Assembly: GCA_965220745.1 (NCBI GenBank)
Contig: CBDCQT010000010.1
Span: forward strand, 512,001-576,000
DNA length: 64,000 nucleotides
Reading direction: 5' to 3'
Origin: Alphaproteobacteria bacterium
GTDB taxonomy: Bacteria; Pseudomonadota; Alphaproteobacteria; UBA828
Shown here: positions 3,268-12,145 of the stretch, one piece after another
Layout of the letters: each line of letters opens with the position of its first letter
Numbering within the stretch: position 1 is the first letter of the stretch
Notes under the pieces: model-generated
The model's database searches: none
Told to the model about the DNA's origin: nothing
What the model saw: only the letters and a program-made list of their open reading frames with translations
Position numbers and translations under genes: made by a program

Positions 3268-4293
3268 ATGTTCGAGGAGTTCGGGTTCGAGGAGCTGACG
3301 CCGATCACGGCCTCCGTGCTGCTTGGGCTGGTGCTCGGCCTGGCCTATGGCGCGCTCGCGCAGCGCAGCGCGTTCTGCCTGCGCCGCAGCCTGGTGGGCC
3401 AGTGGCGCGACTGCCTGCCGGCGCTGGGCACATGGGTGATGGCGCTGGCGACCGCGATCGCCGGCACCCGCGTGGCGGTTGCTTTCGATCTGATCTCCTT
3501 CGAGGCGCATCGCTTTCTCGCGGCCGACCTGCCGGTCGCGTCAGCGCTGCTGGGCGGCGCGCTCTTCGGAGCCGGCATGGTGCTGACGGGCGGCTGCGTC
3601 TCGCGCCTCACGGTGCTGGTCGGCACCGGCAATCTGCGCGCCTTGCTCGTCCTGGTCGTCTTTGCCGTCACCGCCCACGCGGTGATGAAGGGCGCGCTGG
3701 CCCCGATCCGCGAGGCGGTGGGGGACGCGACCGTCCCCGGCGGTGCAGCGACGGCACTCGCGGCCTGGCCCGGCGGCGAGGTCTGGCCGGCGATCGTCGC
3801 GAGCGCCGCGTTTCTCTTCGCGCTCTTCTCCCGTGCGCGTATCTCCCATCTGGCAATGGCAGCCGCGATCGGGCTGCTGGTGCCGCTCGGCTGGATCGGT
3901 ACGGGGTTCGTGCTGCTGGACGATTTCGACCCGATCCCCGTGGCGTCCATGGGCTTCACCGGGCCGATGGCGGACACGCTGTTCTGGGCCGTGGCGGCGA
4001 CCTCGATTCCGGCGGGCTTCGGCACCGGCCTCGCCGCGGGCGTCCTGCTCGGCAGCCTGGCGGCGGCGCTCGCCGCGGGCGAGTTCCGCTGGCAGAGCCT
4101 GGAAGGCCCGCGCCAGACCGGGCGCTACCTCGCCGGCGCCGTGATGATGGGCGTGGGTGGCGTGCTGGCGGGCGGCTGCACGGTGGGCGCCGGTCTTTCC
4201 GGCGTCTCGACCGCGAGCCTTGCCGCCCTGCTCGCGCTCGCCGCCATGGCCGTCTCGGCGCGGGCCACAGGGGTGCTTCTCACCGCGCGTTAG
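3268..4293 (+). CDS. YeeE/YedE family sulfur-compound (thiosulfate) transporter
   Basis: Hydrophobic protein with the conserved Cys motifs FCLRR, GMVLTGGCVS and GGVLAGGCTVG; next to sox genes. Confidence 0.9.
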   Translation: MFEEFGFEELTPITASVLLGLVLGLAYGALAQRSAFCLRRSLVGQWRDCLPALGTWVMALATAIAGTRVAVAFDLISFEAHRFLAADLPVASALLGGALFGAGMVLTGGCVSRLTVLVGTGNLRALLVLVVFAVTAHAVMKGALAPIREAVGDATVPGGAATALAAWPGGEVWPAIVASAAFLFALFSRARISHLAMAAAIGLLVPLGWIGTGFVLLDDFDPIPVASMGFTGPMADTLFWAVAATSIPAGFGTGLAAGVLLGSLAAALAAGEFRWQSLEGPRQTGRYLAGAVMMGVGGVLAGGCTVGAGLSGVSTASLAALLALAAMAVSARATGVLLTAR

Positions 4294-4494
4294 AGCGGGA
4301 GCCGATCTCGTCTGATCAAGGCGGCCCTAAGATTCCCACCGCCCCCTATCCCCCTCCCAACTATTCATTTCCCTCAAGCGCCGGGCGCTCGCTCCGCTCG
4401 CTTGGCTACGCGCATTCGCGCGCGGCGCAGTCGCGCCGTCCGGGCCTGCGGCCCGGGAGGGAGGAGGGGGAACGCTGACGGCGCCACCCGTTCT

Positions 4495-4523
4495 CCCTCT
4501 CCTCCCCGTTGGGGAGGAGAGGG
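4495..4523. repeat. Palindromic intergenic element (13-bp perfect stem)
   Basis: CCCTCTCCTCCCC-GTT-GGGGAGGAGAGGG followed by CCGGGGTGAGG; resembles alphaproteobacterial intergenic repeats; lies between convergent genes. Confidence 0.7.
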
Positions 4524-4541
4524 CCGGGGTGAGGAGGGGGC

Positions 4542-5837
4542 TTAGCTGAACATGTCGCCGGTGATGGCGGCGTACCAGCCGAGCGATTCCTCGTAGGTCG
4601 CCTTGCGCAGCTCCGCGCTCTCCCCGGTCTTGGAGATGAAGCCGTCGGTCTTGGCGATCTTCTCGTCGGTCGCCTCGTAGGAGGCACCGACCTTGACTCC
4701 GTCGTCGGTGCCGATGAGCGACCAGCAGGTGTTGGAGTAGCGCGGCGGGAACGTCGAGGACCCGGTGAGCGCACCCCGCACCGCCATGGCGCAGGCCTTG
4801 GCCTGACTGTTGGCCGAGAAGCCCGACTTCGGCATGTCGCCCTGCTGCGAGGCATCGCCGAGGACGTGGATGTTCTCGTCGGCCCGACTCTGCATGGTGT
4901 GCGGCACGATCGGCGCCCAGCCAGCCTCGTTGGTGATGCCCGCGACCGCGGCGATGCGCCCGGCCTGCTGCGCGGGGATGACGTTGCAGACATCCACCTC
5001 CGTCGCCTCGCCGTCGATCACCACCTCCATGGCCTCGGGCCGCACCTCGACCTTGTCGCCGCCGAAGTCCGGGCCAACGCGCTCGATCATGCCGGCGTAA
5101 TGGCGCTGCCAGCCCTCCTCGAACAGGCCCTGCTTGGAAAACTTCGCCTTGGGATCGACGATCAGGATCTTGGCGGTCGGGTTCGACTGCTTCAGCACGT
5201 GGGCCACCATCGAGATCCGCTCGTAGGGCCCGGGCGGGCAGCGGAACGGGTTGGGCGGTGCCACCATGCAATAGGTGCCGCCTTCCGGCATGGCCTCGAT
5301 CTGCGCCTTGAGCAGCTGGGTCTGCGAGCCCGCCTTGTAGGCGTGCGGCATGCGGTTTTGCTGCGACAAGTCCCATCCGGGAACGGAGCCATCGCGAAAG
5401 TCGATACCCGGCGAGAGGATGAGGCGGTCGTAGGCGAGGCTGCCCCCGCCAGCGAGCCCCACGCTGCGCGCGTCGCGGTCGACGGAGACCGCCCAGTCGT
5501 GCACCACGTTGATCCCGTGATTCGCGGCGAGGTCCCCGTAGCTGTGGCCGATCGACGCGTACTCGCGGAAGCCGCCGATATAGAGGTTCGAGAAGAAGCA
5601 GCTGTAGTAGGCGCGGCTCGGCTCCACGAGCGTCACGTCGATGGCGCCATCCGAATCCTTGGCGATGTAACGCGCCGCCGTCGCGCCGCCCGCACCGCCG
5701 CCCACGACCACGACGCGCGGTCGCCCCTGTGCGAGCACCGTGGGCGCCGACAGCGCCGATACCGCCGTCGTCGCCGCTGCTGCGGATGCGAGGAAGTGGC
5801 GCCGGTTCAAGCCGCTCTTTCCGTTCGGTTTGCTCAT
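4542..5837 (-). CDS. soxF: Flavocytochrome c sulfide dehydrogenase, flavoprotein subunit (SoxF/FccB)
   Basis: Tat signal LNRRHFL, VVVVGGGAGG FAD motif, PPNPFRCPPGPYER, MPKSGFSANSQAK, NTCWS. Confidence 0.93.
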   Translation of the reverse strand: MSKPNGKSGLNRRHFLASAAAATTAVSALSAPTVLAQGRPRVVVVGGGAGGATAARYIAKDSDGAIDVTLVEPSRAYYSCFFSNLYIGGFREYASIGHSYGDLAANHGINVVHDWAVSVDRDARSVGLAGGGSLAYDRLILSPGIDFRDGSVPGWDLSQQNRMPHAYKAGSQTQLLKAQIEAMPEGGTYCMVAPPNPFRCPPGPYERISMVAHVLKQSNPTAKILIVDPKAKFSKQGLFEEGWQRHYAGMIERVGPDFGGDKVEVRPEAMEVVIDGEATEVDVCNVIPAQQAGRIAAVAGITNEAGWAPIVPHTMQSRADENIHVLGDASQQGDMPKSGFSANSQAKACAMAVRGALTGSSTFPPRYSNTCWSLIGTDDGVKVGASYEATDEKIAKTDGFISKTGESAELRKATYEESLGWYAAITGDMFS

Positions 5838-5854
5838 GACGTGTCTCCCCTGGC

Positions 5855-6589
5855 TCACGGATCGTCGTCCGCCTTGCGGAAATGCGCAGCGAGGGCGGCA
5901 ATCTCTTCGTCCGACAGGCGCCCCGCCACCATCTGCATGACGGGATGCACCCTCTTTCCGCCCTTGTACGCGTGCAAGGCTATCACGAAGTCATCGAGCG
6001 GCCATCCGGTTATCGAGGGGATGCCCTCGTCGGTGCCGTCCGTCCGGTGGCAGGTGGTGCATTCGCCCGCGAGATAGGCGCCGTACTCGGGGTCACCCTC
6101 GATGGCGAGGATCTGCGGATCGAGGCCGTATTCCTCGGGCGTGGCGGTCGGCTCTGCCGCTGACTGATTGGAGTGGTCTCCCGAAAAGCCGACGAGCCAC
6201 GCCAGGAGCGCGGCCCTGTCGTCCGCTCCCTCCATGCCGTCGAAGCTCATGCGCGAGTGCGGCACGAAAGTGTGCGGATCGGCGAGGAAGGCGTCGAGCG
6301 CCTCCTCGCTCCAGACCAGGCCACCGGACCCGGCGTCCTTCATCGCGTCGGAATAGCGGAAGTCCGCGAACGAGCCGGCCGTGCGGCCGAAGACATCGTT
6401 GAGGTGCGGGCCGATCCGATGTGCCGCGCCGCTGCCGACCTGGTGGCAGCGCTTGCACTGGCCGAAGAGCGCCTTGCCGCGCTCGGCCTCGGCGCCCCAA
6501 GCGTTGAGAGCGGGGAACGCCAGCAGAAGCGCCACGGCGAGCATCCCGGAGGCGGCCCATGCCGCGAGTCCGGCCGCCCGGTGTCCCAT
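5855..6589 (-). CDS. soxE: Diheme c-type cytochrome (SoxE-like)
   Basis: Signal peptide and two CxxCH motifs (CKRCH, CTTCH); between soxZ and soxF; start could be GTG 6610. Confidence 0.85.
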   Translation of the reverse strand: MGHRAAGLAAWAASGMLAVALLLAFPALNAWGAEAERGKALFGQCKRCHQVGSGAAHRIGPHLNDVFGRTAGSFADFRYSDAMKDAGSGGLVWSEEALDAFLADPHTFVPHSRMSFDGMEGADDRAALLAWLVGFSGDHSNQSAAEPTATPEEYGLDPQILAIEGDPEYGAYLAGECTTCHRTDGTDEGIPSITGWPLDDFVIALHAYKGGKRVHPVMQMVAGRLSDEEIAALAAHFRKADDDP

Positions 6590-6596
6590 CGCGGCC

Positions 6597-6923
6597 CTAG
6601 TCGACCTCAACCTGTTTGCTGAGGCTGTAGACGGAGCCGTCGTCGTCGAACCACTGGAACTCCAGAAGACCCGAGTCCGGGACGGCCAATTGGAATTGAA
6701 CGTAGGGGTCGGCCGAGACCGCCGGTTCCAGATCGACGGAGATCGCCACCTCGCCGTTATAGCTGACCACGAAGCGGTTGATGATCCGGCGGGGCACGAG
6801 CACGCCGTCGCTGTCGTGGCGCTCCCCGGTGTGCATCGGGTGGGTGATCCGGGTCTTGACCGTGAAGGGGACGCCCGCCTCGATCGACCTCGGCAGCTTC
6901 ACGCGCGGCCTGGGTTGCGCCAT
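6597..6923 (-). CDS. soxZ: Sulfur carrier complex protein SoxZ
   Basis: 'VKTRITHPMHTG', 'PRRIINRF', 'PAVSADPY', 'WFDDDG'; GAGGAG RBS. Confidence 0.9.
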   Translation of the reverse strand: MAQPRPRVKLPRSIEAGVPFTVKTRITHPMHTGERHDSDGVLVPRRIINRFVVSYNGEVAISVDLEPAVSADPYVQFQLAVPDSGLLEFQWFDDDGSVYSLSKQVEVD

Positions 6924-6933
6924 CGCCTGCTCC

Positions 6934-7353
6934 TCAGCCGCAGCCGCCAACGGTGACCGCGATCTTCTGGGAGGCCTCGCGGAACGTGCCGTCCGCCATC
7001 TCCGCCACCGCGTAGACGGTCTGGCTCTGCGCGAGCCGGATGCGGATCGTGGCTTCGGGCCGCACCAGCCTGCCGAAGTTGAAGACCGCGACGCCGGGAT
7101 TCGGGTTTCCGTCGTTGAAGAGGGCGATGCGTCGCGCGCCCTCGGCCACGACCCGGATCGGCACGGCGCCGCCGTTGTCGAAGATTTCGGGCGCGTCGAG
7201 CAGCACGCCGCCTTCTAGCCGCAGCGCGCTTCCGGTGAATTCGTCGATGGCCTGCCAGACGCCGTTGGAGGCCTGGGCCGCACCGGCCGGGATCAGCGCA
7301 GCCGCCGTGGCGGAAGCGCTGAGCAGCAATACATCCCTGCGTGTCGGTGCCAT
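6934..7353 (-). CDS. soxY: Sulfur carrier protein SoxY
   Basis: Tat signal TRRDVL, 'APEIFDNGGAVPI', 'GNPNP', 'RIRLAQSQ', C-terminal VTVGGCG. Confidence 0.9.
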   Translation of the reverse strand: MAPTRRDVLLLSASATAAALIPAGAAQASNGVWQAIDEFTGSALRLEGGVLLDAPEIFDNGGAVPIRVVAEGARRIALFNDGNPNPGVAVFNFGRLVRPEATIRIRLAQSQTVYAVAEMADGTFREASQKIAVTVGGCG

Positions 7354-7388
7354 CGTGCAGCCTTCTCCCGCTCGCGGGGTCATGGGCG

Positions 7389-7418
7389 ATATGGCGCCCC
7401 TTGGCGGCACCCGTCAAG
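7389..7418 (-). promoter_or_regulatory. Putative RpoD-type promoter of the sox operon
   Basis: Minus strand CTTGAC-N18-CCATAT, close to the alphaproteobacterial CTTGAC-N17-CTATAT pattern. Confidence 0.5.
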
Positions 7419-7489
7419 CCCCCGGTGCGCGGGCGCTCGCATGCGTCTGTCGTCAAGCACTATGTTCAGTTACTTTCGACTACCGACCT

Positions 7490-8281
7490 TTAGTCGTCGC
7501 CTGTCCATCGTTCTTCTCGCTCTTGATCGCGCGCCTCCGCAGTGCGCCCTTCCGCATCGTTGGTGTATTCGGTGGCCATGACTCCCTGAACCGGAGCGAT
7601 CATGACTTTGTTTAAGTTGAGAAATTGGACGAGGGTATCAATCTCTTCCGCTGTGGTCAGGCGAAAGGAGCCCTCTAGGGCCGTCCCATCAAACGCCGCA
7701 CGGAATGGCGTTCCCTGTTGCGGAGGTGGTGGCGGCGCCAAATCGGCACCCGACGACATGCTCGGTTGCATTGTTTGGTCCGCCTCTTTGCCAAGTTCAG
7801 CAGGACCTTGATCGTAGAAAGCACTCTCGCGTTCGGCAAGCTCCATTGTTTCACGATAGGCGAGCAAAGCGATGCCTGCCGCCCCACTATTGAAGTTATT
7901 TCGCAAAAGATAGTTCCGCAGAAGTCCCTCGTTGTCCCGGCCGCCGGGGAAACGCTCGGTTAGGGTCGCGAAGAGTTCCGGGTCAGATGCAGCATCCTGG
8001 ATGGCGCTCACACGCTCCTGGGGAGATTCAGGGTGGAGGCACTTCATCCCGCGCTCACTGATCTTGAGGTCGCTTCCCTGGCGCTCCAAAAGACCGTATT
8101 TCTTCAAAGCTGATACGGCCGTCGCAGACTTGCCATGCAGACCGGAATAGCCCAGCCCCGTCGCTATGTCCTCTCGCGGCGCGGGGTGCGCCTGGACCGC
8201 GTTCCACAGCCTCTGCAGGCGCTCCAACGCCTCCGGTAGCCCGAGGGCAGGGTAGTTCGGGGATCGCGCTCGCTTGCTCAT
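7490..8281 (-). CDS. Hypothetical protein with N-terminal winged-helix-like region (accessory)
   Basis: ATG 8281 preceded by GGAG; 'SPNYPALGLPEALERL...LGYSGLHGKSATAVSALKKYGLLE' looks like a wHTH; lower GC than neighbours. Confidence 0.75.
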   Translation of the reverse strand: MSKRARSPNYPALGLPEALERLQRLWNAVQAHPAPREDIATGLGYSGLHGKSATAVSALKKYGLLERQGSDLKISERGMKCLHPESPQERVSAIQDAASDPELFATLTERFPGGRDNEGLLRNYLLRNNFNSGAAGIALLAYRETMELAERESAFYDQGPAELGKEADQTMQPSMSSGADLAPPPPPQQGTPFRAAFDGTALEGSFRLTTAEEIDTLVQFLNLNKVMIAPVQGVMATEYTNDAEGRTAEARDQEREERWTGDD

Positions 8282-8282
8282 C

Positions 8283-8317
8283 GTTATTCTCCACTCGTAC
8301 GTGGTGGGGAGAATAAC
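8283..8317. promoter_or_regulatory. 10-bp inverted repeat overlapping the RBS and -10 of the 7490-8281 gene
   Basis: GTTATTCTCC-N15-GGAGAATAAC. Confidence 0.65.
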
Positions 8318-8338
8318 ACGCTCCCTCGTGTACGTAAA
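8310..8338 (-). promoter_or_regulatory. Putative sigma70 promoter (leftward)
   Basis: Minus strand TTTACG-N17-TATTCT. Confidence 0.5.
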
Positions 8339-8359
8339 ACTTTTTTCACGACTTCCAGG

Positions 8360-8388
8360 TTGACGAGAGACTCTGGCAATAGCAGAAT
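8360..8388 (+). promoter_or_regulatory. Putative sigma70 promoter (rightward)
   Basis: TTGACG-N17-CAGAAT. Confidence 0.6.
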
Positions 8389-8415
8389 GAGCCCCAGAGC
8401 GAGTCGGAGGCGCAT

Positions 8416-8505
8416 ATGAACAGAAGAGAGTGGAGCCCCCACCGGTATCGCCGAGCGCTGGCGGGGGCGAGGACAAACAGCAGGGGCCGCTGCCCAGCTC
8501 CCTAA
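8416..8505 (+). CDS. Possible 29-aa leader peptide MNRREWSPHRYRRALAGARTNSRGRCPAP
   Basis: GGAGG at 8406-8410, 5-nt spacer, ATG; ends at TAA inside a predicted pseudoknot. Confidence 0.35.
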   Translation: MNRREWSPHRYRRALAGARTNSRGRCPAP

Positions 8506-8541
8506 GACGCAAGCAGCGGCCCCGAATCGGCCCGTCTTAGG
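8483..8541 (+). ncRNA. Predicted H-type pseudoknot directly 5' of the tRNA-like element
   Basis: Stem 1: GGGGCCGCTGC (8483-8493) / GCAGCGGCCCC (8513-8523); stem 2: CCTAAGACG (8501-8509) / CGTCTTAGG (8533-8541). Confidence 0.55.
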
Positions 8542-8630
8542 AGGCGTAGCAGAGCGGTCGAATGCAGCGGTCCTTAAAAACCGCCGGACCTCCCTTGGTC
8601 TCGTGGGCTCGAAGCCCACCGCCTCCGCCA
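8540..8630 (+). tRNA. Atypical tRNA-Ser-like RNA (8-nt anticodon loop, non-canonical T-loop); functional status unknown
   Basis: Acceptor GGAGGCG/CGCCTCC, G73, CCA; D-arm GCA/TGC; anticodon stem GCGGT/ACCGC with loop CCTTAAAA; long variable arm GGACC/GGTCT; T stem GTGGG/CCCAC with loop CTCGAAG. Confidence 0.8.
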
Positions 8631-8847
8631 GACCCCACTAAGGCCGATGTGTCCATAGCACGTCGGCCAACTTTTTAAAATCAATCTTTTGCCCAGCGTT
8701 TCGAAGCGGCCTTCCGCACGATTTCCCGCCGCCGCTCGGGCGAGAGGGGCGGACTTCGAACTGACGCAGTACCGTGCATTGACGCGCCCCGGCCTTCGCG
8801 CGAGCATAACAGATTCCGCGAGTGTGGCTCTCAGGGAGGAACGGGAC

Positions 8848-10122
8848 ATGGCGCGCACCGTCTTCACCAACGTCAGCATCTTCGACGGCACCGGCAAGAG
8901 GCCCTTCCGGGGCGAGGTGTCGATCCAGGGCAACCGTATCGAGAAGGTCGCCAGGAACGGCCAGAAGCTGTCGCGGCGGGGCGCTGCGGTGGTGGACGGC
9001 GACGGCGCCACGCTGATGCCGGGGCTCGTCAACGCCCACTGCCACATGAGCTACACCGGGCCGGAAGCGATGTCCGAGATCCCGCCCGAGGAGCACACGC
9101 TCATCACCATGCACAACGCCAAGACGATCATCGATCACGGCGTGACCGCGGCTGTGGGCGCGGGCGCGGCGAAGACACGCCTCGATATCGTGATCCGGAA
9201 CGAGATCGACGCCGGCCGCATCCCCGGTCCGCGCTACCGCGCCTGCTCGCCGGAGATCACGGTCACCGGCGGCCTCGGCGACCAGCGCATGCTGCACTAC
9301 TACAAGAACGACCTCTCGCTCTTCGCCGATGGGCCGGAGGAGATCCGCCAGGCCTGCCGCATGCTGGTCCGCGAAGGCGTGGACATCATCAAGCTCATGC
9401 CGTCGGGCGATCACCTGATCCCCGGTGCCTGCGATGCCACCCAGAGCGCGATGGACGAGGACGAGATCGCCGCCGGCGCGCGGGTCGCGCACCAGCGGGG
9501 CCGCCGCCTCGCCGCGCACGCGCGCAATCCGGAATCGATCCGGCTCTGTATCAAGTACGGGATCGAGCTGATCTACCACGCGACCTACGCGGACGAGGAA
9601 TCTCTCGACCTGCTGGAGGAGCACAAGGACAGGCACTGGGTGGTGCCGGCGATCGGCTTCACCCACGCGACTGCCTACGAGGCCGGCGAGTTCGGCATCT
9701 CGCCGGCGGAAGCCGAGTCATGGGGCTTCGTCCGCGAGCTCGAGATCGGAGCCGAGACCCTGAAGAAGATGCACGCGCGCGCAATCAAGGTGCTGCCCTT
9801 CGGCGACTACGGCTTCCCCTGGACGCCGCACGGCCAGATGGCGCGGGACTTCGAGCACTTCACCAACTACCTCGGCATGAAGCCCTACGAGATCATGCGG
9901 GCCGCGACCCACTACGGCGCCCAGGCCTTCGCTGCGCCGGACGAGCTGGGCCGCGTCAAGCCGGGCTGCCTCGCCGACCTGCTGCTGATCGACGGCAATC
10001 CGCTCGCCGATCTCACGCTCTTCCAGGACGAGGCGAACATCCTGATGGTCATGAAGGACGGCGCCTATCACAAAGCGCCGCAGGCGCGGCAGAGGGTCGT
10101 GCAGCAGGCCGCAGCCGAGTAG
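8848..10122 (+). CDS. Metal-dependent amidohydrolase family protein
   Basis: 'TLMPGLVNAHCH' HxH motif, 'GVDIIK', 'AAHA', 'GRVKPGCLADLLLIDGNPL'; GGGAGG RBS. Confidence 0.9.
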   Translation: MARTVFTNVSIFDGTGKRPFRGEVSIQGNRIEKVARNGQKLSRRGAAVVDGDGATLMPGLVNAHCHMSYTGPEAMSEIPPEEHTLITMHNAKTIIDHGVTAAVGAGAAKTRLDIVIRNEIDAGRIPGPRYRACSPEITVTGGLGDQRMLHYYKNDLSLFADGPEEIRQACRMLVREGVDIIKLMPSGDHLIPGACDATQSAMDEDEIAAGARVAHQRGRRLAAHARNPESIRLCIKYGIELIYHATYADEESLDLLEEHKDRHWVVPAIGFTHATAYEAGEFGISPAEAESWGFVRELEIGAETLKKMHARAIKVLPFGDYGFPWTPHGQMARDFEHFTNYLGMKPYEIMRAATHYGAQAFAAPDELGRVKPGCLADLLLIDGNPLADLTLFQDEANILMVMKDGAYHKAPQARQRVVQQAAAE

Positions 10123-10137
10123 CCCAGCAGACCCGCG

Positions 10138-11310
10138 ATGGCGGCGCCCGACCGGGAGACGCTGCTCGCCGGCGCGGAAGCGCTGATCCCCGTGCTGCGC
10201 GAGCGGGTGCCGGAGGCGGAGTCCCTCCGGCGCATTCCCGACGCGTCCATCGCCGACCTCGTGGACAGCGGCCTGATCCGGGCGACGCTGCCGGCGCGCC
10301 TCGGCGGGGCCGAGGTGGACTATGGCACGATGATGGAGATCGTGGCGCTGCTCTCGCGCGGCTGCGCGTCCACCGGCTGGGTCTACTGCAACCTCGCGAG
10401 CTGCACCTTCAAGCTCGCGCTCTGGCCCGAGCGGGCGCAGGACGAGATTTGGGACGCGGACAAGGACGCGCTGCTGACCGGCAATCTGATCTTCCCCTGC
10501 GGCAAGGCGACACGGGTGGACGGCGGCTATCGCCTAAGCGGGCGCTGGCCCTTCGGCAGCGGCATCGACCACGCCTGCGCCAACTTCTTCGGCGCCATGG
10601 TGGTGGACAGGGAGCCGCAGGAGTTCCGCATCTTCCTGGTGCCGAAGGGCGAGTACACCGTGCTCGACACCTGGCACGCGTCGGGCCTGCGCGGCACCGG
10701 CAGCAACGACGCCGCGGTGGATGACCTGTTCGTGCCGGAATACCGCACCATCGACGCGGCGAGTACGCGCCACGGCGCCGCACCCGGCAACGCGTTGAAC
10801 ACCGGCGCGGTCTACCGGCTGCCGCTCTTCGCCATGTTCTTCACCTGGGTCGGCGCGGCGGTGCTGGGCATCGCCGAGGCGGCGGTCGAGGGCTATGTCG
10901 AGGCCACCCGCACCCGCGCCGCGCACTATTCGGGCCAGCGGCTCGCCGAGCTCGGCACCATCCACGTCAAGATCGCCGAGGCCCGCGCCGCCGTGGCGAC
11001 GGCGCGGCGCATCTACCTCGGCAACTGCGCCGAGGCGACGGCGATCGCCGAGGGAGGCGCGCTGCCGGATGCCGAGGCCCGCGCCCGCTACCGGGCCGAG
11101 GGCGCCTACGCCGCCAAGCTCTGCTGCCAGGCGGTGGACATGATCACCGCGGCGAGCGGCGGCGGCGGCGTCTACGACCGCAACCCCCTCTCCCGTGCCT
11201 TCCGCGACATCCACGCGGGCTCGGCCCACATCACCCAGACCTGGGACCCCAACGCGATCACCTACGGCCGCTTATCGCTCGGCCTGGAAACCGACAACCC
11301 GCTTCTCTAG
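10138..11310 (+). CDS. Acyl-CoA dehydrogenase-fold flavin-dependent monooxygenase (HsaA-like)
   Basis: 'GCASTGW', 'GGYRLSGRWPFGSG', 'DTWHASGLRGTGSND', 'RAFRDIHA'. Confidence 0.88.
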   Translation: MAAPDRETLLAGAEALIPVLRERVPEAESLRRIPDASIADLVDSGLIRATLPARLGGAEVDYGTMMEIVALLSRGCASTGWVYCNLASCTFKLALWPERAQDEIWDADKDALLTGNLIFPCGKATRVDGGYRLSGRWPFGSGIDHACANFFGAMVVDREPQEFRIFLVPKGEYTVLDTWHASGLRGTGSNDAAVDDLFVPEYRTIDAASTRHGAAPGNALNTGAVYRLPLFAMFFTWVGAAVLGIAEAAVEGYVEATRTRAAHYSGQRLAELGTIHVKIAEARAAVATARRIYLGNCAEATAIAEGGALPDAEARARYRAEGAYAAKLCCQAVDMITAASGGGGVYDRNPLSRAFRDIHAGSAHITQTWDPNAITYGRLSLGLETDNPLL

Positions 11311-11322
11311 CCCGGCGAAGAA

Positions 11323-11952
11323 TCAGTGGCGCTTGAGCGCCGGGAAGCCGGGGTATTCCGAGGCGTGGTCGCCGGCGTGGTTCGCCATGCCGAGCTTGGT
11401 GAGGCAGCCCTTGGGCGCCGCAAAGCTCTCGATGCGCCGGTTGGGCTGCTCGCACCAGCGAAGATTGAAGGCGGCGTAGGTGGGGAAGAACGCCATGTCC
11501 GAGTACGGCAGGTTGTCGTGTATCCACCAGGCGAGGGCCTGCCAGGGCGTGCCCGCTTCGTAGCGCGGGATGAACCAGGGAATCACGATACAGGCGGTCG
11601 CCCCCATGTGGCCCTCGGCATCGCGGCGATCCCACACGTGGCGGGCATAGTTCCAGGTGGTCTCGCCGCAGTTGTAGCCTTTGTCCGACCGCTCGTGGCC
11701 GTAGGTGTTGACCTCGACGGAGCGGAAGGCGGAGCGGATCGAGACATGGCCGAAGGTGGCGTGCAGGGGCTCCAGCAGCTCCTCGCAGAGCCTAGTCCCG
11801 GCCGCGACGGCGAGATCGGGATCGTCCGGAATGTTGGGTATCCCGTGGAAGTTCGCGATCTCGCTATGGAGCATCTCGCGCATGAAGAAGTGCTCGGACA
11901 GCCGGACTCGGCCGAGCCTTTCGAGGGCCTTCATGGAGGCGGGCTTGCGCAT
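11323..11952 (-). CDS. Peptidase M15-like protein
   Basis: 'RLSEHFFMREMLHSE', 'LCEELLEPL', 'IRSAFRS'; AAGGAG RBS. Confidence 0.65.
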   Translation of the reverse strand: MRKPASMKALERLGRVRLSEHFFMREMLHSEIANFHGIPNIPDDPDLAVAAGTRLCEELLEPLHATFGHVSIRSAFRSVEVNTYGHERSDKGYNCGETTWNYARHVWDRRDAEGHMGATACIVIPWFIPRYEAGTPWQALAWWIHDNLPYSDMAFFPTYAAFNLRWCEQPNRRIESFAAPKGCLTKLGMANHAGDHASEYPGFPALKRH

Positions 11953-12145
11953 GGGCTACTCCTTTTCGGGACGGGACCGCAGGCAGGATACGCAATCCGG
12001 AGCCGACCGTGACAGTACCCGTCTGCAGCGTTCTTCGGCGCGGGCATGTGCCGCGCGACCCGCTGGCGTTGCGGCACTCTTGCGACCGTGGAGCGATTTG
12101 GATAGGGTCCGCCGCGTGGCCGGCGCCGGGCGCCGCGCCCCTCGC

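Follow-up and report, generated by a model that had tools for sequence, protein, structure and literature searches.

A 64,000-nucleotide (nt) stretch of an alphaproteobacterial genome (GTDB lineage UBA828; contig CBDCQT010000010.1, positions 512,001 to 576,000), called the window below, carries at positions 8540–8630 a tRNA gene of the serine type with eight nucleotides in its anticodon loop. Comparison of the gene with its relatives showed, at the level of sequence, a structurally intact Ser-type tRNA descended from a mobile, transposon-borne ochre suppressor (anticodon UUA, loop CUUUAAA). In our judgement the chances are about even that it is now a disarmed or retuned descendant of this suppressor, kept as the tRNA-shaped 3′ part of a cassette RNA. 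In the following, G000 is the genome carrying the gene, L-numbers are related loci, and G008 and G001 are genomes of the same genus.

An extra serine tRNA gene with altered loops

The initial annotation had described a Ser-type class II body with pairing stems, G73-CCA and an 8-nt anticodon loop. Inspection of the sequence, ARAGORN, Rfam and RNAfold all agreed with this description. ARAGORN called a 91-nt tRNA-?(Stop|Leu) at these positions on the forward strand. The Rfam tRNA family (RF00005) matched with 43.1 bits (gathering threshold 29; E = 1.6e-8; model positions 1–71), and its alignment read the anticodon loop as C32, a single inserted C, U33, UAA, A37 and A38. RNAfold predicted an acceptor stem of 7 bp, a D stem, an anticodon stem of 5 bp closing the 8-nt loop, a variable stem of 5 bp and a T arm (−42.1 kcal/mol, z = −3.2). 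In this fold, C54-G60 and U55-A59 lengthened the T stem to 7 bp, leaving a 3-nt loop.

The gene has every element of the identity set of bacterial class II tRNA-Ser: G73, G2:C71, C11:G24, a D arm of the Ser type and a variable arm that is long. When aligned with the four tRNA-Ser and five tRNA-Leu genes of G000, it clustered with the former (GGAGG acceptor, D arm, G73), and its identity to tRNA-Ser(UGA) was 74%. The G000 genome (67% G+C, 13 contigs, a permuted tmRNA, which points to an alphaproteobacterium) has ordinary tRNAs for Ser with the anticodons GCU, CGA, GGA and UGA, and a tRNA-Leu(UAA). As all four ordinary tRNA-Ser genes are present, the gene studied here is a fifth, extra one of the Ser type. 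It departs from a canonical elongator tRNA in having an anticodon loop of 8 instead of 7 nt and C in place of U54. An 8-nt loop is what is expected of a +1 frameshift suppressor tRNA; UUA at positions 34–36 of a 7-nt loop, as expected of an ochre suppressor, is absent from this copy.

This 43-bit tRNA was not listed by an Rfam 'evalue' search of positions 7500–9700 (2.2 kb) and was found by a search of 131 bases. A real tRNA with odd loops can be hidden by the speed filters of a wide Rfam search.

The altered loops in independent assemblies

The anticodon loop contains short runs (CC, UU and AAAA), and a spurious base might have been inserted in such a homopolymer-rich loop by assembly or sequencing. 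The initial annotation had proposed read mapping as a check for an assembly indel. We compared the deposited sequence with per-run contigs of X1 and X4, which come from one sample, possibly the source of the deposited assembly, and of X5, which comes from another study. The X1 and X4 contigs (depth 4.2 and 29.1) showed 0 differences and 0 gaps over 8300–8800 and retained the 8-nt loop. The loop and the T-loop changes are therefore no indel artefact of the deposited assembly. With the 8-nt loop also found in the independent X5 run, we consider a spurious base extremely improbable.

The X5 contig had 28 differences and 2 gaps over the same 501 nt. It stayed colinear out to 8800, beyond the cassette border described below, and thus represents the orthologous locus in a related organism. 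Only three differences fell within the tRNA: 8576 A>C, 8595 T>C (variable loop) and 8614 G>T. The X5 tRNA keeps A9, C54 and the 8-nt anticodon loop, in which one base differs, and has U at position 60. A9, C54 and the enlarged loop are thus common to two diverged lineages, and G60 is specific to G000. The complementarity of the two changed T-loop bases, C54 and G60, had been pointed out in the initial annotation and stood; an origin of the two as a pair did not, because X5 combines C54 with U60. It had also proposed a search for relatives with the same loops: X5 has the 8-nt loop, one base off, and the 16 other distinct Ser-type copies compared below have loops of 7 nt.

Two other contigs of lower depth in the X1/X4 sample have loose ends that resemble Ser-type tRNAs, at least one of them with CUUUAAA. 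Canonical copies are probably carried by other organisms or replicons of the sample.

Relatives of the gene form a suppressor tRNA family

The tRNA gene, together with an upstream leader and a downstream terminator, recurred in 2 of 20 other genomes of the genus. Its loops are CUUUAAA (UUA, ochre) and UUCGAAU (T-loop) in G008; the anticodon loop in G001 is CUCUAAA (CUA, amber). Other matches in the genomes of the genus, at about 74% identity, were ordinary tRNA-Ser(UGA) genes. G008 matched only 8406–8748 of the G000 region, and neither G008 nor G001 yielded the partner protein of the cassette with the G000 protein as query. The metagenomic loci L155–L157 matched 7465–8736 at 87.8%, with unrelated flanks.

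A pattern scan restricted to a single genome for each species returned 113 stretches; the 80 that were examined proved to be mostly ordinary tRNA-Ser. Four of the 80 carried a Ser-type UUA tRNA; they are from two Parvibaculum metagenome-assembled genomes (MAGs), one alphaproteobacterial MAG and one Hyphomicrobium MAG. L048, from a Rhodobacteraceae MAG and found by the DNA pattern only, has a Ser body with the loop CUUAAAA. Its upstream sequence, available for 690 nt, has no partner protein, so that its membership in the cassette family is not established.

Among 17 distinct Ser-type copies, the anticodon loop was CUUUAAA in 12, CUCUAAA in 2 (G001 and L179, both thus with the anticodon CUA), and CUUAAAA, UUCAAAA and CCUUAAAA in one each, the last being that of G000. 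The T-loop was UUCGAAU in 14 of the 17 (13 by regular expression, L184 by eye), and position 9 was G in 15. L177 has A9, a C54 T-loop and an acceptor mismatch, independently of G000. Ochre suppression had been among the functions suggested by the initial annotation; it fits the lineage, a family of stop-codon suppressors with 7-nt loops and the anticodons UUA and CUA in the sisters, but not the G000 loop itself.

The family was also approached through the partner protein, which led to 80 metagenomic loci and 5 loci from viral contigs. Among loci anchored on the protein and having 400 nt or more of upstream sequence (n = 85), ARAGORN found a tRNA on the divergent strand 224–285 nt from the protein start in 40. 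The anticodons called were tta in 21 (one re-read later), tac in 5, tgg in 4, aca, taca, ta and tga in 2 each, and cta and agg in 1 each; the G000 gene is one of the two called ta. The tRNA bodies were of Ser type, Leu type or a small type that is Gln/Glu-like by eye (for the Gln/Glu-like and Leu-like sisters, loops are given as ARAGORN called them). Leu-type UUA tRNAs occupy the same position beside the partner protein in L160–L162, L172 and L192. More tRNA-like sequences, missed by ARAGORN, were visible by eye in related loci.

An IS1-like DDE transposase (Pfam DDE_Tnp_IS1, 6e-8) was present in 35 of 94 related loci. BLAST of the 343-bp unit against plasmid and phage records gave generic tRNA-Ser matches only.

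Helices were kept while the loops changed

For each part of the cassette we compared G000 with L155. Identity was 0.891 in the protein gene, 0.758 in the intergenic region, 0.910 in the leader, 0.934 in the tRNA and 0.944 in the terminator. The tRNAs differ by G9A, two changes in the anticodon loop, a variable-loop C>U, U54C and U60G. As L155, G008 and G001 agree with each other or lack the G000 state, all six changes were placed on the G000 branch.

None of the 6–7 inferred events changed a helix position, and 41 of the 91 positions are non-helical. By hand arithmetic, the chance that all events fall outside the helices is (41/91)^6 to (41/91)^7, or about 0.008 to 0.004. Divergence of the tRNA (6/91 = 0.066) was about a quarter of the neutral level as represented by synonymous divergence in the neighbouring gene (pS = 0.239). 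From this comparison the helices look constrained while the decoding nucleotides moved. Mutations scattered randomly over the relatives, which the initial annotation had named as a sign against its proposal, were not what we saw; the helices were conserved instead.

Anticodon loops of the family follow the pattern (C/U)U-NNA-AA, and the G000 loop equals this pattern plus one C on its 5′ side. This agrees with the Rfam alignment. UAA, the anticodon for the Leu codon UUA, would then stand in the anticodon frame; in X5 this frame holds UCA. The loop of the G000 lineage gained one nucleotide, most simply a C 5′ of U33. The other changes of the lineage were those of the middle anticodon base, of G9 to A and of T54 to C, with U60 to G following later.

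The leader RNA

The positions of the tRNA, the leader and the other cassette features are given in Table 1.

Table 1. Features of the tRNA cassette in the window (SD, Shine–Dalgarno sequence; ORF, open reading frame; MFE, minimum free energy).
Feature	Position	Strand	Detail or evidence
Ser-type class II tRNA gene, 91 nt	8540–8630	+	ARAGORN, Rfam, RNAfold, alignments
A9 of tRNA	8548	+	
Anticodon stem, 5 bp	8567–8571 / 8580–8584	+	
Anticodon loop, 8 nt, CCUUAAAA	8572–8579	+	
T stem	8603–8607 / 8615–8619	+	
T loop CUCGAAG	8608–8614	+	C54 = 8608, G60 = 8614
G73; CCA	8627; 8628–8630	+	
Leader start region	8406–8427	+	SD GGAGG 8406–8410, ATG 8416–8418, AAC, AGA AGA 8422–8427
Leader mini-ORF, 29 codons + TAA	8416–8505	+	First residues (M-x-R-R) alone conserved
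Leader hairpin P1	8435–8468	+	Single-sequence MFE folds
Leader hairpin P2, 11-bp stem, mini-ORF stop in loop	8483–8523	+	Single-sequence MFE folds
Promoter-like site TTGACG, 17 nt, CAGAAT	8360–8388	+	Consensus scan
Intrinsic terminator, 11-bp stem then T run	8642–8676	+	Conserved in G008, G001, L155
Partner protein, 263 aa, N-terminal winged helix	7490–8281	−	TAA stop at 7490–7492
Remnant C-terminal end of small cassette protein (...RREI..KAA..RW.KD)	8684–8743	−	blastp vs L050 + L113 ORFs

A strict pattern of SD, start codon, 0–3 codons and tandem AGA/AGG was found in 30 of 71 distinct loci. The tandem codons in these 30 were AGAAGA in 14, AGGAGA in 9, AGGAGG in 6 and AGAAGG in 1; other loci have AAA AAA or AAG AGG at this site. 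AGA makes up 1.2% of the Arg codons in G000, which has one tRNA-Arg(UCU) gene. The leader ORF ranged from 3 to about 30 codons among relatives (one was open at 50), and its stop codon varied, so that the peptide itself is probably not the point. Some related loci lack a tRNA, and their leader runs straight into a terminator or a different gene.

Leader structures were obtained as single-sequence MFE folds of 36 leaders, with covariation shown informally only. In 35 of the 36 (mean z = −2.1) the 3′ part formed a hairpin domain with 9 bp or more, with 26 distinct 5′-arm sequences. In the P1 stem of L155, an A·C mismatch was repaired by a change. RNAalifold on MAFFT alignments of the leaders gave no consensus structure or only a partial one, and no Rfam family was found for the leader, all matches being far below threshold.

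CreT RNAs are the toxins of CRISPR-regulated toxin-antitoxin pairs, kept repressed by a CRISPR-like CreA guide with Cascade and toxic once derepressed. Four of their elements are reported to be critical for sequestering tRNA-Arg(UCU), namely a strong SD, an AUG followed by two rare Arg codons in a row, and a stem-loop of high stability (PMC8501985). The G000 leader is similar in having a strong SD, an AUG, tandem rare AGA codons after the start and a stable stem-loop. It differs in the winged-helix partner, in the often longer ORF of the family and in the tRNA fused downstream. No CRISPR repeat-like creA or cas genes were seen here; repeats were sought only via Rfam scans, which gave nothing above threshold. 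By analogy, the leader may act like CreT.

The P2 loop (8490–8509) is 75% complementary over 20 nt to the junction of leader and tRNA (8533–8552), including the first acceptor bases. This pairing looks weaker in G008 and L155 and may be due to chance. When read through its TAA, the leader frame runs into the tRNA and ends at a TAA within the anticodon loop (8503–8577). The sister copies with 7-nt loops also have such an in-frame TAA inside the anticodon loop, which probably just follows from the UUA-A sequence of the loop.

The cassette, its borders and its surroundings

The cassette spans 1.27 kb (7465–8736) and consists of the divergent protein gene, the putative promoter, the leader, the tRNA and the terminator. 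The consensus scan for promoters found 1 site against 0.1 expected, and the −10 hexamer is kept in the L155/L156 alignment. Its sequence suggests a promoter function. Together with the terminator, this site flanks a predicted transcript of about 285 nt.

Homology ended at 8736 with L155 and at 8748 with G008, and no convincing terminal inverted repeats were found at the cassette borders. The small cassette protein, of which only a C-terminal end is left downstream of the terminator, has 85–96 aa when full length in other elements. No transposase homologue lies within 5001–12000. The sole one in G000 is an IS1-like transposase on another contig, C13 (629288–630118), 60% identical to the L050 copy and 195 bp from an ordinary tRNA-Pro(GGG); no leader, partner protein or second cassette was found in its vicinity.

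The flanking genes look like ordinary chromosomal genes. Upstream (3268–6610) are genes for a sulphur-transport protein, a flavocytochrome c sulfide dehydrogenase flavoprotein and a dihaem cytochrome c; downstream are genes for an amidohydrolase and an acyl-CoA dehydrogenase-like protein.

The partner protein

At E ≤ 0.001, the partner protein had 474 homologues, all 'hypothetical protein' or unnamed and with no Pfam domain recorded. It had no match in Pfam, PHROGs, NCBIfam or PADLOC. In the AlphaFold2 model (mean predicted local distance difference test score 78), residues 1–160 were confident and hold a helix-turn-helix and a wing. Foldseek against the PDB gave nothing at E ≤ 0.001 and only weak winged-helix rows; the ESM Atlas gave unnamed clusters only. 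The protein was present in 3 of 401 genomes sampled across the class. Between G000 and L155 its gene has a dN/dS of 0.24, which indicates purifying selection.

What the G000 copy might do now

As a disarmed or retuned suppressor, the gene would be transcribed from the cassette's own promoter, with the CreT-like leader as the 5′ part and the tRNA as the 3′ part of one RNA of about 285 nt. The cloverleaf would be retained because the cassette RNA needs a 3′ domain shaped like a tRNA, either to be processed by RNase P/Z or to be stable, and efficient ochre decoding would have been lost. Charging by seryl-tRNA synthetase (SerRS) is plausible; if charged, the tRNA would be at most a weak Ser inserter at UUA. 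Disarming can be argued from cost: ochre suppression would hit ORFs ending in TAA (12.7% of 2651 long ORFs in G000), and UUA is the rarest sense codon counted there (0.23 per 1000 codons). The rest of the cassette appears intact in sequence, that is, the protein, SD/AUG/AGA AGA, P1, P2, the promoter-like site and the terminator.

In this interpretation the gene with its line of descent, the cassette and the way the changes are distributed were observed, and the transcription unit, processing, charging and decoding are inferred. Several points weigh against it. In G008 a perfect canonical suppressor persists without the partner protein and without the cassette promoter, since its homology begins at 8406; the helices may thus persist without the selection that we suppose. 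The counts of events are small (6–7), and loops may mutate faster than helices. The A/C difference between G000 and X5 at the likely anticodon base fits relaxed constraint and UAA/UCA switching equally well. As in a relic, no transposase is adjacent and the small gene downstream is truncated. A role of the tRNA domain in structure or processing is putative, and some related leaders have no tRNA.

The tRNA could instead be an active decoder that is charged by SerRS and reads UUA (perhaps UUG) as Ser, or UAA, or a quadruplet with a +1 frameshift. The loop is the family pattern plus a 5′ C, with U33 and A37 retained in frame, and the helices are conserved. Sister Ser bodies with 7-nt loops bear the Leu anticodons UAA (L048) and CAA (L184), and the difference at the middle anticodon base, UAA in G000 and UCA in X5, resembles this anticodon switching in the family. 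However, G000 has C54 for the near-universal T54, G60, which closes the T loop, and A9 for G9; these three together are expected to weaken the tRNA elbow. There are published precedents: a Ser-identity allo-tRNA(UAA) was toxic to E. coli, in which it inserted Ser at UUA codons (PMC5389517), and the yeast mitochondrial tRNA-Thr(UAG), with its 8-nt loop, reads triplets (PMC7609411). A survey of stop codons in the partner protein and transposase genes, on the other hand, found no target gene requiring read-through. The stops were TGA 37, TAA 25 and TAG 8 for the partner protein (n = 70) and TGA 14, TAA 5 and TAG 4 for the transposase (n = 23), neither with a link to the anticodon. Mostly short open tails follow these stops, and few are long; the stop codons of the leaders did not track the tRNA anticodon either. 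We consider an active decoder a serious alternative, though less likely than a disarmed or retuned suppressor. A neutral relic, the dead passenger of a decayed transposon drifting to loss, seems less likely still. It would account for a cassette with no adjoining transposase, the only homologue being on another contig, for the truncated small gene and for changes that strike normally invariant features (loop size, T54 and position 9). L177 also has such changes, and the L163 tRNA has an internal deletion. A drifting gene is, however, hard to reconcile with the absence of helix changes, a divergence about one quarter of that at adjacent synonymous sites, the derived state common to the diverged X5 relative, and the purifying selection on the protein next to an intact leader, promoter-like site and terminator.

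The initial annotation had listed serine insertion at UUA, ochre suppression, +1 frameshifting, a tRNA mimic and a pseudogene side by side; its Ser-type body was borne out, and so was stop-codon suppression as a property of the lineage. The comparisons added that the copy is derived, that it belongs to a mobile cassette with a leader RNA and a partner protein, and that C54 is older than G60.

It is also conceivable, though doubtful, that the whole cassette is an undescribed mobile 'codon-poisoning' module that serves addiction or defence or holds back AT-rich invaders. The winged-helix protein would be a repressor controlling one RNA, composed of a CreT-like minigene tying up the rare tRNA-Arg(UCU/CCU) and a mis-decoding tRNA. 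The tRNA would be aimed at codons rare in GC-rich hosts: UAA, UAG, UUA/UUG, GUA and CCA. The 8-nt copies of G000 and X5 would then have been tamed by the host or re-aimed, perhaps as natural quadruplet or shifted-frame decoders.

Comparison with known suppressor tRNAs

E. coli supD is a tRNA-Ser amber suppressor, and the classical suppressors are laboratory point mutants of essential tRNA genes. The family described here is similar in combining a Ser body with a stop anticodon in the sisters of the G000 gene (CUA in G001 and L179, UUA in 12 of 17). It differs in being extra, horizontally spread and conserved across lineages, and in that the G000 loop no longer has 7 nt. The frameshift-suppressor tRNAs sufD, sufA6 and sufJ have 8-nt anticodon loops, in which the extra base extends the anticodon. 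The G000 tRNA likewise has one additional loop nucleotide in a normal cloverleaf, but its extra base is most simply placed 5′ of U33. An anticodon loop one nucleotide larger in an otherwise normal cloverleaf is natural in the yeast mitochondrial tRNA-Thr(UAG), which reads triplets and reassigns Leu codons (PMC7609411).

The allo-tRNAs are published examples of Ser-type tRNAs that carry a Leu or stop anticodon and lie close to mobile or toxin-antitoxin genes. As described in 2017, these are extra Ser-type tRNAs of soil bacteria with non-serine anticodons, including UAA (Leu UUA) and UUA (stop UAA); they lie near toxin-antitoxin genes and a transposon-related ORF, and inactive, degenerate members exist (PMC5389517). 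The present family shares the extra Ser-type tRNAs with the mismatched anticodons UAA/UUA. The 12-bp acceptor/T branch differs: it is 8/4 or 9/3 in the allo-tRNAs, which are defined by this, and a canonical 7/5 in the G000 gene and its relatives. The passages of the paper that were searched (PMC5389517) mention no leader, winged-helix partner or IS1-like transposase.

In the literature found, no transposon-borne suppressor tRNA with such a leader or protein was described, and the supplements of the cited papers may list related tRNAs. Within the same scope, a canonical 7/5 Ser-type family, a fixed link to a protein and a leader, and an 8-nt derivative in two lineages were undescribed. ISNwi1 was not mentioned in the literature found on transposon-borne suppressor tRNAs.

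Natural suppressor or mistranslating tRNAs are known mainly from phages, allo-tRNAs and laboratory mutants. The family described here adds suppressors of canonical 7/5 build, of the Ser type and also of the Leu type, that are mobile, widespread in metagenomes and linked at a constant distance to an uncharacterised winged-helix protein and a CreT-like leader. The G000 copy illustrates the fate of a resident suppressor gene, with decoding nucleotides altered and helices kept. An active G000 tRNA would be one of the rare cases in nature of a bacterial tRNA whose anticodon loop has 8 nt; a disarmed one would exemplify the natural neutralising of a costly suppressor by host or element with the RNA kept. 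Taken together, the tRNAs offer natural, orthogonal-like suppressors of the Ser and Leu types, ready for use as a panel.

Other unusual tRNAs

A second clade of cassettes carries short Gln/Glu-like tRNAs (L194–L201, L212, L220, L224, L183, L227, L231 and L232). Their T-loop is UCCGAAU throughout (C55) and their anticodon loops are about UUACA/UUACC; ARAGORN called them Val, Cys, '(ta)' or, with four bases, '(taca)'. In L213, L223, L226, L229 and L233, Leu-like tRNAs with a long variable arm have the Pro anticodons UGG/AGG, and one has the T-loop UGCGAAC. L174 and L190 have a normal leader followed by a tRNA-like sequence with acceptor and T arms and no recognisable D or anticodon arm.

Elsewhere in G000, ARAGORN made over-long tRNA calls on contigs C3, C5, C11 and C13, for Ala (86 nt), Thr (93 nt), Ile (94 nt) and Gly (82 nt). 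These may be false, or further odd tRNAs.

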